From positions 59,668 through 123,667 of the IMG/VR virus record IMGVR_UViG_3300025684_000014: DNA of 64,000 nucleotides, one strand, 5' to 3'. This document shows positions 27,766 through 46,759 of this stretch, piece by piece. A program made the translations under genes and the position numbers. The stretch is from a virus. The number at the start of each line of letters is the position of its first letter. The stretch's first letter is position 1. Under the pieces are notes generated by a model. The model did no database searches and was not told the origin of the DNA. It saw nothing but the letters and a program-made list of their open reading frames with translations.

Positions 27766-29085
27766 ATGTGCAGTAACGATCATCACAATCATGATGACTC
27801 TCAAGCGCATCAAGAAACTGATGGTAAGTTTGTACATTTTCATGTGCATACTGAGTATTCTCTTCTTGATGGTATTAACAAAGTTTCTCGATTACCAAAA
27901 AGAGCAAAAGAGCTCGGTATGCCTGCTGTGACTATATCTGATCATGGCAACATATCAGGCAGTTACAAATTTTATAAAGAGTGTAAAAAGCATGACATCC
28001 AACCTATTATTGGTATGGAAGCTTATTACACAGTAAATGATCGCCATGCAAAAGAGCCTGATGAACTAGGTAAATCTTACTATCATTTGATCTTACTTGC
28101 TCAAAACAATACTGGTCTTCACAACCTTATGAAGCTTAGCTCTTATGCTTATACAGAAGGTATGTATCGTAAGCCACGTATTGATGACGCTCTTATTGCT
28201 GAATACTCAGAAGGCTTAATAGCTACTACCACATGTCTTGGCAGTAGAGCTAGTCAGCTTATTCTTAACGGCGAAAAAAAAGCTGCTCAAAATCTCATAC
28301 TCCATCATAAAGCAATGTTTAAAGATCGTTTTATGGTTGAGCTTCAGCTTCACAAAGATGAAGAACAACAAACAGTTAATAAAGTACTCCAAGAAATTGC
28401 TTTAGACCATAATCTTCCAATGATTATCACAAATGACTGCCATTATACCTATGAGCATGATAAAATGCATCACGAAGCTGCTCTTTGTATGCAAACAAAG
28501 ACTACTTTAGCTGATGAAAATCGTTTTAGTTTTGGCGAAATTGACGTTCACTTTGCTTCTCATGATTGGATGTGGAAACAAGCTGAAGCTCAAAATATGC
28601 CTTATGATGTAATTTCAAATACTGCTCATTTGACCAGTATGATCGATAGCGATTCTTATTTTATGGATAAGATGAATCGTTATCCAAAATTTCAAGAAAT
28701 CCCTGAAGGTCTTACAAGCCCAGAACATTTAGCTATTGAAGCTCAACATGGACTTTATGCACGTTTTGGAGAAATGCCTCCACTTGAGTACAGAGAACGT
28801 TTATCAGAAGAATTAAATGTTATAAAGAGAATGGGTTTTTCTGATTACATGTTAATCGTTGCCCAATTTATGAATGGCGCTCGAGACTATGGTGTTATGC
28901 ATGGTCCAGGTCGTGGTTCTGCTGCAGGAAGTCTTGTAGCTTGGGCATTACGAATTACTGAAGTCGATCCAATAAAATACGATTTGATGTTTTCTCGTTT
29001 TCTTAACGAGGGTCGTGCTGCGACTCCTCTTATTTTTAACAAAGAAATGGCAGCAAAAGCTGACCAATACACTATGCCTTTTTAA
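27766..29085 (+). CDS. dnaE: DNA polymerase III alpha, fragment 1 (PHP domain and start of palm)
   Basis: [46 protein letters not shown], then a short tail and stop. Confidence 0.93.
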   Translation: [439 protein letters not shown]

Positions 29086-29094
29086 GGAAATAAC

Positions 29095-30361
29095 ATGACT
29101 AATCAACAACAAATTCAAGAGTATGCAACTAAAATCCAAGCAACAGGCGATACTTATGCAACCTATCTCTACGCTATTCAAGACAAAAATGGACTTATTG
29201 TACGTCATAGAAACAATACTCATTACGCAACTAGGGCTGAAGCTCGTGCTGTTAGGCGCACTCTTCAGCGAAACGATATCAAAGTTGTTCGCGCTGAGTT
29301 TATTAATGTTTCTCGTTGGGAGACTGCTAAGTGAAAGAGCATCTTATTCCAAAATTTTGGCAAGCTAATTTATCAGCAAAATCAAATACAGCTTCTTATT
29401 ATACTGACGGTATTCACCTTTACTCAGGAAAAAAAGTCATTGGAACTACAAACGGCTATGGTCAGAAGTTTTTATACAATTATACAAAGTCTGACCAAGG
29501 GACATTTTTGTCTCCGCTAATTAGCAGACATGTAAATATGGCTAAATTTTATGCAGATGAATTTGTATCAACTAAAAAGGATTAATTATGCTTAACGATC
29601 AATCTCCAGAAGCACATAATTTTTTAGAAAAACATGTCTACGTAAATGCTAATCCTTTAATCCAATATCTTCTTGAATCAACTAAAGAGCCTTTTGGTGA
29701 AGAATGGTATGAAGAGCTTTTTTGTCATTATGACACTTCTTCAAATTCTGAACCAGAGCTTTATCATGAAACTCAACTTTATGAAGATTACAACCCATCT
29801 CTAGAAGGTGATTATTGTCCTGAAGATTTTGAACCAGAACTTAGAGAACCTTATGAGTTTTATATTGTAAGTAATTATTTTGCTGAACAATTAAAAGCTC
29901 ATAATGCTTTACTTACAAATCAATTTGGTTTTTGGATTTGGGGCAGAGAAACTACTGGACAAAGTATTATTTTAGATTATATCTTTCAAAAAATTTGGCA
30001 ACAATTTAAAGAAAGAAATGCATAATAGGTTTATATGAGCACATATATTATTAAACTTGATCCTTATTCTCAATTATATAAAAAATTAAAATCTATTTTT
30101 AATAATAAAAATCATATTATTATTGCTGTAAAAAATACAGAGCCTCATGCAAGGTCTGCGGTTGAAGGCCTTCTGTATAATTTAAATAACGCATACGAAC
30201 TTTCGTATAAAGAAAAAACTCTTACCGAAAAAGTATTTCAAATAATGGTCTCTTTAAACAAAGATTCTTTTACTGATTCGGAAATACAAGTTATAGAATC
30301 TTCTTTTAATTTTAAAATTAAAGATCAAAGTTTTTATACCAATCTTTTGTGGGGTGGTTAA
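29095..30361 (+). other. Four small hypothetical genes between dnaE fragments 1 and 2 (29095..29334, 29331..29585, 29588..30025, 30035..30361)
   Basis: Tightly packed ORFs with ribosome-binding sites; no polymerase, intein or nuclease motifs seen. Confidence 0.65.
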
Positions 30362-30426
30362 CACCCACCCTTACATCTTCTAACTGGTTGTAACTTCCAT
30401 TTTTTTATTGTTTCAAAGGTATTCAT

Positions 30427-45139: not shown

Positions 45140-45484
45140 ATGAAAATATCTGCTAAGCAAGTCAATTTTACCAATCACGCTTTTGTAAACCCTATTGAAT
45201 TTACAAGCAATTATTCACATACACAACAATCCCCACACGATCTTTTGTGGATTGATTCTTCTAGCGATTATACTGTTACTTTGCCTGATCCATCTACTAT
45301 TCCAAGTGGAACTATAGTAAGTTTTATTACTTTAGGAACAGGTAATTTATTAATTCAGCCTTACAATCAATCTGGTACTATAGATGGTCAATCTACTTTA
45401 ACTTTAAATAGTACTAAAGGTGTTTGCCTTGTTTTATTAGACGCTACAAATAAACTTTGGGCTGGTTTATCTCATTACGCTTAA
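45140..45484 (+). CDS. Small fibre-tip-like domain protein
   Basis: VTLP...G.IVSF...GTIDG...W; similar to the C-terminus of 33754..37488. Confidence 0.55.
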   Translation: MKISAKQVNFTNHAFVNPIEFTSNYSHTQQSPHDLLWIDSSSDYTVTLPDPSTIPSGTIVSFITLGTGNLLIQPYNQSGTIDGQSTLTLNSTKGVCLVLLDATNKLWAGLSHYA

Positions 45485-45496
45485 TGAAAGGTTTAA

Positions 45497-45610
45497 ATGA
45501 AAATTGTATCTAAAGAATATTTAGGCAAGCAACAAGTTTATGATATTGGAATTTCTTCTTATACTAATAATCATAATTTCTTTTTAAAGAATGGCCTTGT
45601 TGCTCATAAT
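45497..45610 (+). mobile_element. Split intein, C half (38 aa)
   Basis: MKIVSKEYLGKQQVYDIG...HNFFLKNGLVAHN followed by Cys+1. Confidence 0.95.
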
Positions 45611-46759
45611 TGTTTTAATAAAGCTCACTCTGTGAGCTACTCTTTTCTTACTTACATTAGTGCATATTTAAAAGCTCATCATCCTGTAGAGTTTTTTACT
45701 GCGCTCATGTCTACTAGATCAAAAACTTTACAACCAAAAAGCTGGGCTGTAAAAGCTCCTGAATATATTTCAGAAGCTAAAAAGTTTGGTGTAGAAATAC
45801 ACCCTCCTAGTATAAATAAATCTGGTTTTGAATTTACTATTCATGGCACTGAAATTTATTTTGGATTAAATGCTATCAGGGATGTAGGTCAAACAGCTGC
45901 TAAGGCTATTATAAAAGCTAGAGGCAATGTTCCTTTCAAAGATGTTAAAGATTTTTTAAACAGAATCAATATGCAAAAAGTAAATACTAAAGTTTTTGAA
46001 GCTTTAGTACATGCTGGAGCTTTTGATCAAATGGGTTATTCTAGAAATGATCTTTTAGATTTTACGTCTGAAATATATAAATATATTAAAGACGTCGAAG
46101 ATTACAAACAACGAGAAATAGATTACGTTGAAAGAGAACAACATAACGCTACTGTTATTCCTTTAATTGAGCGACGTAATTTTCTTCGCAATGAAATAAA
46201 AAAAATTAATAATAGAATTTCAAAAGATAAACAAAAAGAAGACGATATAGACAATCTTCATATTTACGAAGAAGAGTTAGAGCCTCTTGAAGAAGCAGGT
46301 TACAAAAAGCTGCCTTCTTTAAAACGACATGATGTTCCTGTCTTTCCTGAAATACAGAGAACAAAATTTGTTCCTCTTACTCTTAAACAAATTATGGATC
46401 AAGCTCAATATATTGGTTGTTATATTGGTGGACATCCATTAGATCTTATATCTATCGAAAAAGACGATTTAGATACTCTTGTCCCTGGTTTGTATGCATC
46501 TGTTGCTGGAGTCGTGCTTTCGATTAAAGAAATAAAAACTAGAGCTGGTAAGCTTATGGCTTTTATCGAAATAGACGATTCTACTCGATCAGCAGAAATA
46601 GTTGTATTTCCCTCTACATGGACTAAGATAAAAGAAATTGGCATTCAAGAAGCCGATATAATAAAAGCTAGAGTAAAAGTTGAATCAACTGATCCTGATG
46701 TAAAACTTATATTAAATAAAATAGAAAGAATTGATATAAAAAATGAAATGGACTCCTGA
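45497..46759 (+). CDS. dnaE: DNA polymerase III alpha, fragment 3 (IntC + fingers/HhH/OB)
   Basis: HN|CFNKAHSVSY, YLKAHHPVEF, PPSINKS, GLNAIRDVG, GHPL, MAFIEIDD. Confidence 0.93.
   Translation: MKIVSKEYLGKQQVYDIGISSYTNNHNFFLKNGLVAHNCFNKAHSVSYSFLTYISAYLKAHHPVEFFTALMSTRSKTLQPKSWAVKAPEYISEAKKFGVEIHPPSINKSGFEFTIHGTEIYFGLNAIRDVGQTAAKAIIKARGNVPFKDVKDFLNRINMQKVNTKVFEALVHAGAFDQMGYSRNDLLDFTSEIYKYIKDVEDYKQREIDYVEREQHNATVIPLIERRNFLRNEIKKINNRISKDKQKEDDIDNLHIYEEELEPLEEAGYKKLPSLKRHDVPVFPEIQRTKFVPLTLKQIMDQAQYIGCYIGGHPLDLISIEKDDLDTLVPGLYASVAGVVLSIKEIKTRAGKLMAFIEIDDSTRSAEIVVFPSTWTKIKEIGIQEADIIKARVKVESTDPDVKLILNKIERIDIKNEMDS

Follow-up and report, generated by a model that had tools for sequence, protein, structure and literature searches.

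A phage dnaE in three genes, predicted to be assembled by RNA self-splicing, protein trans-splicing and chain docking

The DNA analysed here, called the window in the following, comprises 64,000 bases and corresponds to bases 59668-123667 of the IMG/VR virus record IMGVR_UViG_3300025684_000014. In the window, DnaE, the alpha subunit of DNA polymerase III (Pol III alpha) and the only DNA polymerase that can be recognised in the record, is spread over three + strand genes with a total span of 18,994 bases. We put at about 0.85 the probability that the replicative DnaE of this phage is made from these three genes by RNA self-splicing, protein trans-splicing and the docking of chains. From the sequences, their motifs and order, conservation and polymorphism we infer the joining and docking reactions as well as the homing activity described below. 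The group I intron at 31389..32644 would excise itself from the pre-mRNA of fragment 2, which would then encode a protein of 544 residues (434 extein and 110 N-intein residues). This N-intein would pair with a C-intein of 38 residues encoded 12.2 kb downstream, and GFADY would be trans-spliced to CFNKAH, yielding a chain of 816 residues with the Mg-binding palm, thumb, fingers, HhH and OB. Fragment 1, which contributes PHP and the GRGS half of the palm, would never be joined; it would dock non-covalently, such that one active site is formed by two chains. Part of the predicted docking interface would be two overlapping copies, both decayed, of the segment equivalent to residues 368-401 of E. 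coli alpha. As to the order of events, the break between fragments 1 and 2 (break 1) is probably the oldest, the split intein (break 3) is found throughout the clade, and the intron (break 2) presumably came last.

Three collinear dnaE genes

The features referred to in the text are the following; a slash within a sequence marks a junction, and ORF stands for open reading frame.

27766..29085, + strand: dnaE fragment 1, 439 residues; Pfam PHP (4.4e-50) and DNA_pol3_alpha profile positions 2-102
29086..30426, + strand: spacer between fragments 1 and 2, with the ORFs 29095..29334, 29331..29585, 29588..30025 and 30035..30361
30427..31388, + strand: dnaE fragment 2, exon 1; remainder of the palm, thumb and first half of the fingers; ends with U31388, within an Ile codon
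31389..32644, + strand: group I intron, 1256 nucleotides, core 31389..31660; Rfam RF00028
31662..32576, - strand: homing-endonuclease-like gene, 304 residues from the ATG at 32576; the ORF extends to a TTG at 32636
32604..32632, - strand: promoter-like TTGACA-17-TATAAT, 5' of the antisense endonuclease gene
32645..32984, + strand: dnaE fragment 2, exon 2, extein part; second half of the fingers, ending ...LGFADY
32985..33317, + strand: N-intein, 110 residues plus stop; CLAGDTEILL (Cys1), block B TENH
33371..45484, + strand: block of eleven ORFs separating the intein halves, two of them tail-fibre/virion-like
45497..45610, + strand: C-intein, 38 residues, MKIVSKEYLGKQQVYDIG...NHNFFLKNGLVAHN
45611..46759, + strand: dnaE fragment 3, extein, 382 residues, beginning with the +1 Cys of CFNKAH; end of the fingers, HhH, OB

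For the comparison with a complete enzyme we used E. coli alpha (5FKU, 1160 residues), and fragment 2 was represented by its intron-less allele P0265 in the HMMER alignments. Residues 19-422 of fragment 1 align to E. coli alpha 3-401, residues 62-434 of P0265 to 368-754, and residues 38-192 of fragment 3 to 754-904. The Pfam matches follow the same course: ORF 30427..31404 matches DNA_pol3_alpha 96-260 and then the finger profile at 1-73, the frame of 32511..33317 continues with finger 74-164 before a weak Intein_splicing match, and fragment 3 (45497..46759) carries HHH_6 (5.6e-30) and an OB fold (1.2e-7). Pfam order and aligned ranges together indicate that the three pieces are collinear and cover the enzyme; PHP, a palm with the GS motif and PDxDxD (here PPDVDLD), fingers, HhH and OB are present in order. 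An initial annotation, made from the letters alone, had claimed this collinearity and had suggested an alignment to DnaE, which bears it out. Its claim of three different kinds of interruption likewise holds at each of the places given, on independent grounds in each case (homologues, intron-less alleles, intein motifs).

The record from which the window was taken comprises 123,667 bases, has no end repeats and is about 79% complete according to CheckV. The window has a G+C content of about 31% and tightly packed genes, mainly on the + strand. A megablast search with 27766..33317 against 50,697 phage records gave a single type of match, 41-44 bases long, to Cellulophaga phages; the source, an uncultured marine phage, thus has no closely related sequence among those records. 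Two homologues come with the labels Flammeovirgaceae and Magnetovibrio from metagenome-assembled genomes; these are bin labels only and were not taken as evidence for a host.

The initial annotation had named misassembly as one circumstance that would undermine its reading. The window does stem from a short-read metagenome contig, and among the pieces listed from other runs no single contig covers all 19 kb; one might thus suppose that the layout is an artefact, produced for instance by merging strains or by misplacing a block of virion genes. Public data speak strongly against this. Parts of 27700..33400 were matched by 24 public runs from 18 studies, seven of which hold half or more of its words, and contigs of four runs from other studies were placed on 27700..46800 (the difference tables show 40 of 745 differences). 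Record 1 of run X2 covers 27866-31438 with 2 differences and so leads from fragment 1 across the spacer and exon 1 into the intron. Records 11 and 12 of run X3 (30550-32159 and 32130-36304) lead from exon 1 through the intron, the endonuclease gene, exon 2 and the N-intein into the downstream genes. Over 28611-34215, record 27 of X9, a 2025 estuary run, shows 314 differences and 6 gaps, which implies that a genome about 94% identical shares the layout, intron included. Records 30 and 31 of X9, which reach 46800, and record 8 of X2 extend to fragment 3. In this way, contigs from three other studies bridge every junction, and the assembly is sound. Moreover, the intein halves, 12,179 bases apart in the window, are separated by about 11.5 kb in the relative G001, 13.5 kb in G002 and about 4 kb in G003, and in G001 and G002 their order is that of the window. 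The only joints reported in the contigs (for example 33061 to 45065) have sides of just 20-24 letters at 90% likeness, are often spurious and were discounted. On this evidence, an artefact is the least probable of the alternatives that we considered.

The second circumstance named in the initial annotation was an intact dnaE elsewhere, together with relaxed selection on the pieces. No second dnaE or other copy of PF07733 was found in the 123,667-base record, and G001, a relative of 158,462 bases that is complete according to CheckV, contains the same two split PF07733 pieces only. Neither a PolB (PF00136) nor a PolA was found in G000 or in the complete G001. Given that G001 lacks any other DnaE, PolA or PolB, the phage appears to depend on the three-piece gene. 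For the extein pieces, comparison with G001, G002 and G003 gave rough dN/dS values of 0.10-0.25, and exon 1 versus L007 gave 0.25; the intein halves, at 0.17-0.58, are less constrained than the exteins. A value of 1.04 for the N-intein versus G003 covers residues 51-104 only, is unreliable and was not used. In the contigs of the other runs, 26 of the 28 listed differences in fragment 1 fall on third codon positions. Judging from these substitution patterns, the exteins are under purifying selection.

These data also bear on the idea that the pieces are decaying remnants of a dnaE and that replication relies on the host or on another polymerase. Three breaks in one gene and a record that is 79% complete could be taken as signs of such decay. 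Against it stand the catalytic and splicing motifs, all of which are intact, the low dN/dS of the exteins and the content of the complete G001; in addition, the same pieces are kept in hundreds of 90%-identity clusters, and the cultured phage phiST shares the first break. We thus regard decay as highly improbable.

The group I intron and the split intein

The intron in fragment 2 matches Rfam RF00028 at 31338..31660 with 66.8 bits, compared to a gathering threshold of 50, and with an E value of 9.6e-15 for the whole window. The Rfam alignment treats the real P1 as an insert: P1 is formed by GCCAU (31384-88) and GUGGC (31395-99), with the pair U31388.G31395 at the 5' splice site. P10 pairs CAAU of exon 2 (32645-48) with AUUG (31391-94), and the last base of the intron is G32644. 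P9.1 is a GAAA-capped hairpin (31662..31679), and the loop closed by an 8-bp stem of 31681-88 with 32628-35 (duplex energy -10.4 kcal/mol) comprises about 940 bases and holds the endonuclease gene. A ViennaRNA fold recovers P1, P3, P4-P6, two hairpins, P8, P9 and the GAAA-capped hairpin. The two hairpins of this minimum free energy structure lie at the place of the IA-type P7.1/P7.2, in a 41-nucleotide insert of the Rfam alignment; the IA subgroup was assigned by eye only. We regard the element as a group I intron, tentatively IA-like, that is predicted to splice itself.

Removal of the intron restores the reading frame and creates the protein junction SAISAI/NRPGPLQ. The predicted ligated exons read ...GCGCCAU joined to CAAUCGCC..., in DNA letters GCGCCAT/CAATCGCC. 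P0265 and P0266, two alleles of 544 residues with 99% identity over exon 1, run through the intron site without interruption as SAISAINRPGPLQ. The loci L050 and L051 are intron-less as well, although they are 98% identical to the intron-bearing P0274, and their DNA reads GCGCCATCAATCGCCC at the site. Intron-less alleles thus confirm the predicted junction at the level of protein and DNA, and they mark the intron as mobile or recently gained. The group I intron proposed in the initial annotation is supported by the Rfam score; its borders, given as 31388..32645, were one base off on each side and would have cost one Ile, the correct extent being 31389..32644.

Among the matches listed, 5 of 120 fragment 2 clusters, with 73-99% identity to the window, end with ...SAISAI[ND]WWP within the intron. 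The intron is absent from all five IMG/VR relatives and from 17 of the 18 metagenome loci covering the site. The remaining locus, L061, found in a scan of metagenomes based on the P0274 protein, has a partial copy of the intron and shares 158 of 181 intron bases, compared to 528 of 689 exon bases. Searches with intron patterns added nothing: an exact 30-base pattern had 0 matches in IMG/VR, a looser one hit 32 IMG/VR loci, all without similarity to dnaE or the intron, and a degenerate 33-base pattern had 0 matches in the JGI metagenomes. On this distribution, the intron is presumably a recent, mobile addition, which occurs in some lineages only.

The gene inside the intron (31662..32576) is antisense to both the intron and dnaE. 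Its product matches PHROG 9084, annotated as 'homing endonuclease', with 1.7e-14 and PHROG 559 with 5.2e-14, and it has an Atlas score of 0.95 to a viral HNH_repeat cluster (homing-endonuclease-associated repeats). An Atlas score of 0.84 to a DUF559 cluster is a lead only, toward a Vsr/DUF559-like core. All Pfam matches are below threshold (DUF2726 0.067, HNH_repeat 0.01), a sequence search of the PDB with E values up to 1 gave nothing credible, only AcrF8 at chance level (E 0.1), and no relatives of the protein were found in IMG/VR. By inspection, D, E, H and D are suitably spaced in ...RCDAYF...VVEYNGRQHY...KKRDQ, which might fit a Vsr-like core. Upstream of the gene, the promoter-like TTGACA-17-TATAAT (32604..32632) is the sole 12/12 match in the 19.8 kb of 27000..46800; the total number of promoter-like sites, 77, is not above that in shuffled sequences (84.8 +/- 8.7). 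The TTGACA hexamer shares bases with the 3' strand of the 8-bp stem that closes the endonuclease loop. To our knowledge, introns of the I-PfoP3I type, which reside in genes of family A polymerases, have their endonuclease gene on the sense strand. The intron probably spread by means of this antisense endonuclease with its own promoter, homing into intron-less alleles.

The contigs of X3 and X9 differ from the window by paired one-base deletions and insertions, 5-7 bases apart, at 31821..31827, 32600..32605 and 32636..32643. These pairs lie in the endonuclease gene and directly 5' of the 3' splice site; they would keep frame and spacing, as expected under selection.

An intron with a 0.9-kb antisense gene might no longer splice, in which case its carriers would be defective and would survive by co-infection with intron-less kin. 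In favour of this scenario, intron-less alleles of 99% identity co-exist in public data, and convergent transcription could impair the ribozyme. On the other side, the core scores above the Rfam gathering threshold, P1, P10 and the terminal G are all present, and the intron occurs in five clusters across 73-99% extein identity. Contigs with the intron come from runs of 2017 and 2025, their depth is similar to that of the flanks, and the paired indels just described would leave frame and spacing intact. Loss of splicing is therefore quite unlikely in our view.

Other self-splicing elements interrupt dnaE in relatives. In L009, a group I intron with an ORF (12549..13585, Rfam 89.8 bits) lies inside the catalytic PPD/IDIDF, and an insertion with a LAGLIDADG-like ORF (14739..15620) occupies the split-intein site; the Rfam search at the gathering threshold gave no match for the latter, which is a putative intron. 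L010 has a small group I intron (16159..16541, 62.2 bits) at RRAMG/KKK, where P0267 and P0314 end too, and L070 contains about 250 additional bases (646..900) at PPD/VDLD. As far as these sequences tell, dnaE is a hot spot for self-splicing elements in the relatives. A 41-base stretch at 32829..32872, coding EADDVRRAMGKKKL, is 97.6% identical to the Cellulophaga phages phiST, phi19:2 and phi13:1, whose DnaE proteins are elsewhere just 25-44% identical to that of the window; at synonymous sites, the stretch of the window is more like that of the Cellulophaga phages than like that of the window's nearer relatives. It is at this very spot, RRAMG/KKK, that the L010 intron resides. The likeness could be due to chance, to constraint or to a co-conversion tract left by homing. 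In the window, recA is interrupted as well: ORF 26447..27076 corresponds to RecA profile positions 3-198 and ORF 27262..27753 to 197-260. The site contains a sub-threshold Rfam match to group I introns (27064..27348; 30.7 bits versus 50, E 7.5e-6 in a search of 801 bases). Placed by eye, a putative intron without ORF extends over 27074..27357, follows U27073, ends with G27357 and would join ...GVMYGN to PETTSGGNAIPFY.

At the third interruption, the N-intein starts at the Cys encoded from 32985 (GFADY/CLAGDTEILL...TENH...STKDD), and the C-intein ends ...LVAHN/CFNKAH, between 45610 and 45611. In a PDB sequence search, all 14 matches of the N-intein were DnaE inteins (Npu, Ssp and engineered ones) with E values from 3.7e-10 to 1.4e-8, and the C-intein matched the Npu chains 4LX3_B and 4QFQ_B with E values of about 2e-6. 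Both sides of the junction map to residue 754 of E. coli alpha. The initial annotation, which had placed an IntN at the end of fragment 2 and an IntC at the start of fragment 3, was thus right on both: Cys1, TENH, HN/C and homology to DnaE inteins are present. The site was compared with cellular genes by scanning one genome per prokaryote species for the pattern A-x-N-C-F-N-K-[AS]-H-S. Of at least 120 matches, 119 were parsed, and all 119 are cyanobacterial-type dnaE-c genes with ...ASN/CFNKSHS, the junction being placed as in the window; four of them carry non-cyanobacterial or unnamed bin labels. Sequence identity of the window's C-intein is 42-63% with 100 of these cyanobacterial C-inteins and 45-92% with 115 phage ones. 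By motifs, homology and site, the split intein is the cyanobacterial DnaE allele, and trans-splicing of its halves is predicted.

Among the matches listed, 109 of 120 fragment 2 homologues have Y/C followed by an N-half of 92-117 residues, with TxxH in all 109, and 116 of 120 fragment 3 homologues open with a C-half of 35-46 residues and [SH]N/CFNK[AS]H; of the remaining four, one has CFNRSH and three are truncated at the N-terminus. The penultimate intein residue is His in the window and Ser in most relatives. According to these homologues, the split intein is clade-wide in these phages, with exceptions such as L009 and L010. Among the eleven ORFs between the halves (33371..45484), 33754..37488 and 43609..45063 match tail-fibre/virion families of PHROG; the other nine match no family, and no nuclease family was found by Pfam or PHROG. 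A G+C-rich hairpin with a T run at 45103..45119, terminator-like on both strands, precedes ORF 45140..45484 and fragment 3, which may therefore start a separate transcription unit.

The intein-free break in the palm

Break 1 separates the nucleotide-binding (GRGS) half of the palm from the metal-binding (PDxDxD) half. Fragment 1 terminates with a 22-residue tail ending ...MPF; fragment 2 begins with a head of 82 residues outside the Pfam match, followed by ...GGAPPDVDLDHD with the catalytic aspartates (PPDVDLD). Pfam detects no intein or Hint domain at the break, the four spacer ORFs (29095..30361) match no family of Pfam or PHROG and hence no nuclease, and an Rfam search up to E = 1 over 28900..33400 revealed no credible intron in the spacer, just a chance-level miRNA match.

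The break recurs in the relatives. Among the matches listed, all 120 fragment 1 homologues end 16-59 residues past FLNxGR, and PDxDxD is present in none of them. Break 1 was seen in all five IMG/VR relatives that reach the site (L005, L006, L007, L009 and L010; 57-76% identity) and in all 16 metagenome loci showing both pieces. The spacer measures from about 250 bases to 3.7 kb in the IMG/VR relatives and from about 0.25 to about 4 kb across relatives; in L005, the gap of about 250 bases holds one small ORF only. In the cultured Cellulophaga phage phiST, the adjacent genes gp044 and gp045 (3489..7089 of L004) are split at the same site. The ends in phiST are unlike those in the window, namely a strand-rich tail of 58 residues (...KLTLEDGSIVELPEGTVVKI...) and a head of 18 residues, and its break at the same place is possibly of independent origin. 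Judged by the homologues, break 1 is old and clade-wide. The tail of fragment 1 (29020..29085) has exactly 22 residues in 54 of the 120 listed homologues, and those inspected end ...AD....PF; other homologues have Cys/His-rich tails of 28-41 residues.

Both ends at the break suggest how it came about. In the HMMER alignments, fragment 1 reaches residue 401 of E. coli alpha and fragment 2 matches from 368 on, which gives an overlap of about 34 residues. By eye, the tail of fragment 1 looks like a dead copy of the catalytic strand. The head of fragment 2 carries an apparent decayed copy of a palm helix, NPHNSILLYLTKLTDDFDF; its sequence NP[HY]NSILLY.TGLTDDFDF looks like a degenerate version of GSLVAYALGIT.VDP, and the motif NP[HY]NSILLY.TG[LI][TS]D is conserved in the clade. 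From these ends we infer that break 1 arose by fission via partial duplication, followed by reciprocal decay.

A model of the complex of fragment 1 with the fragment 2 extein reached an ipSAE score of 0.92, whereas the best of three controls scored 0.00. Three runs agree in at least 95% of contacts, the pLDDT of the partner is at least 86, and about 300 contacts are formed between the chains. Among the confident ones are those of residues 420-423 in the tail of fragment 1 with residues 41, 60-62 and 82-83 in the head of fragment 2. The mark applied to such models was reached by 58 of 80 solved complexes and by 2 of 110 mismatched pairs, a calibration that is rough here since custom alignments were used.

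The main competing idea for this break is that fragment 1 is a separable accessory, i. e. a PHP exonuclease or pyrophosphatase, and that the chain of fragments 2 and 3 is self-sufficient, its head supplying the palm helix. The alignment of the head from residue 368 on and the conservation of its motif in the clade agree with this idea. In the head, however, NPHNS takes the place of GRGS, and most of the roughly 130 palm residues ahead of the catalytic strand are missing from it, only about 34 being covered. GPGRGS and FxRFLNxGR, in contrast, stay invariant in fragment 1 across 32 sequences, the 18-residue head of phiST gp045 has no such copy of the helix, and about 300 contacts link the two chains in the model. 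Consequently we consider an accessory role of fragment 1 unlikely, and retain the reading that fragment 1 completes the active site by docking.

Objections to the proposed route and comparison with known systems

A number of points weigh against a replicative DnaE made from three genes along the proposed route. Besides the lack of a single contig over 19 kb, no RNA run was found among the public runs matching 27700..33400; the three reactions are predicted from sequence. As the record is 79% complete, a second polymerase may lie in the missing part. The dN/dS values are rough because dS is saturated. A BLASTP comparison of the C-terminal region of fragment 1 with the head of fragment 2 gave no alignment with E values up to 100, such that the duplication reading rests on the E. 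coli alpha 368-401 alignments and on inspection. The score of the complex model may stem from solved single-chain structures of Pol III alpha; because of this possible likeness to one-chain structures, the model supports docking without showing it. The sigma-70 consensus may not suit the host of the phage, and expression of dnaE might suffer from a strongly promoted antisense gene within its intron.

The closest counterpart of break 3 is the cyanobacterial split DnaE intein (dnaE-n and dnaE-c of Synechocystis and Nostoc; Wu et al. 1998 and Caspi et al. 2003, both as cited in Dassa et al. 2009, PMC2677866). The host protein, the insertion site N/CFNK[AS]HS and the split into about 100 and about 36 residues are the same, the sequences are homologous, and the halves are encoded in separate genes, in the phage on one strand. 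In contrast, the phage intein resides in a phage polymerase, its halves are 12.2 kb apart in one replicon with fibre-like genes in between, and the same gene also has an intron and an intein-free break. Dassa et al. 2009 described replication genes in phage-like marine metagenome sequences, among them three DnaE loci, which are broken by split inteins, and proposed a model in which the endonuclease is lost and the halves separate; the available parts of the paper (PMC2677866) also mention Vsr-like endonuclease genes in group I introns of recA. According to the same parts, those DnaE loci use other integration points than the cyanobacteria do, with a free-standing endonuclease gene separating the halves. 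The window, by contrast, uses the cyanobacterial site, and its eleven intervening ORFs have no nuclease match; its layout is thus not that of the fractured genes.

For break 1, the nearest precedent is the minimal Pol III alpha of group 2.2 jumbo phages, which is split into an NTP-binding and an Mg-binding protein (Iyer et al. 2021). As far as the available parts of that paper (PMC7824862) go, this enzyme is devoid of PHP and further domains and occurs next to a family B polymerase, and no intein or intron is reported for it there. The logical cut is that of break 1, and only its position is shared: the window enzyme is full-length with a full PHP, and no PolB or PolA was found in G000 or G001. 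Essential replication enzymes encoded as two genes free of introns and inteins are also exemplified by nrdA of Aeh1, split by mobE (Crona et al. 2010, available in part as PMC3045599), and by gp43 of Aeromonas phage 25 (mentioned in the available parts of PMC2677866). There, too, the chains are non-covalently associated, as is predicted for fragment 1. Those breaks, however, contain a homing endonuclease gene, whereas the spacer ORFs of the window have no nuclease match and the ends carry overlapping decayed copies of host-gene sequence, which argues against insertion and for partial duplication.

Self-splicing group IA2 introns that carry endonuclease genes occur in DNA polymerase genes of phages, for example I-PfoP3I of cyanophage Pf-WMP3 (available parts of PMC3428280). 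In the window, a group I intron with a homing-endonuclease-like gene likewise interrupts a conserved polymerase motif. The host genes are those of family A polymerases in the I-PfoP3I type, as far as the source goes; in the window it is dnaE that is interrupted, by an intron whose endonuclease gene runs antisense behind a promoter-like site. Antisense homing endonuclease genes with an internal promoter of their own are described for I-DirII and I-DsqI in group I introns of nuclear rDNA; following the available parts of PMC3073962 and PMC9548176, these introns are transcribed by Pol I, whereas the endonuclease is expressed by Pol II, with polyadenylation and removal of a spliceosomal intron. 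The position of the gene opposite the ribozyme strand and the presence of a promoter, or a promoter-like site in our case, are shared. Unlike the rDNA introns, the phage intron resides in a protein-coding gene, and both transcripts arise in one compartment. The initial annotation had stated that each mechanism is known separately and their combination in one gene is not. In agreement with this, the literature searched, with supplementary files outside the search, contained no paper on a dnaE in three genes or on the three mechanisms combined in one gene, none on a phage DnaE split intein at the cyanobacterial site, and no description of an antisense, self-promoted endonuclease gene in a phage intron. 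While each mechanism has precedents, what appears to be new is the combination of the three in a single gene, together with the intron and its antisense endonuclease.

It is conceivable, though doubtful, that the antisense endonuclease gene does more than ride along: its transcript, which would be antisense to about 0.9 kb of the intron and run toward that of dnaE, might render homing and maturation of the polymerase mutually exclusive. This would act as a switch at the RNA level between homing, early and driven by the host RNA polymerase, and replication; we hold with the same reserve the separate idea that the reservoir of the DnaE split intein is this phage clade and not the cyanobacteria. 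An antisense, self-promoted endonuclease in a phage group I intron is apparently unreported, and with it the antisense interference of a parasite with its host gene becomes open to direct tests. The DnaE split intein, a workhorse of protein ligation, extends beyond the cyanobacteria and is the norm in a widespread clade of aquatic phages of about 150-180 kb. Lengths of the phage inteins vary more than those of cyanobacteria; they offer new natural split-intein pairs and bear on the origin of the cyanobacterial element. The intein-free break points to an active site of a C-family polymerase that would be shared by two chains in viable phages, phiST being a cultured case. With three predicted fixes for a broken gene stacked in one essential gene, this dnaE may serve as a test bed for the accumulation of selfish elements and its cost.

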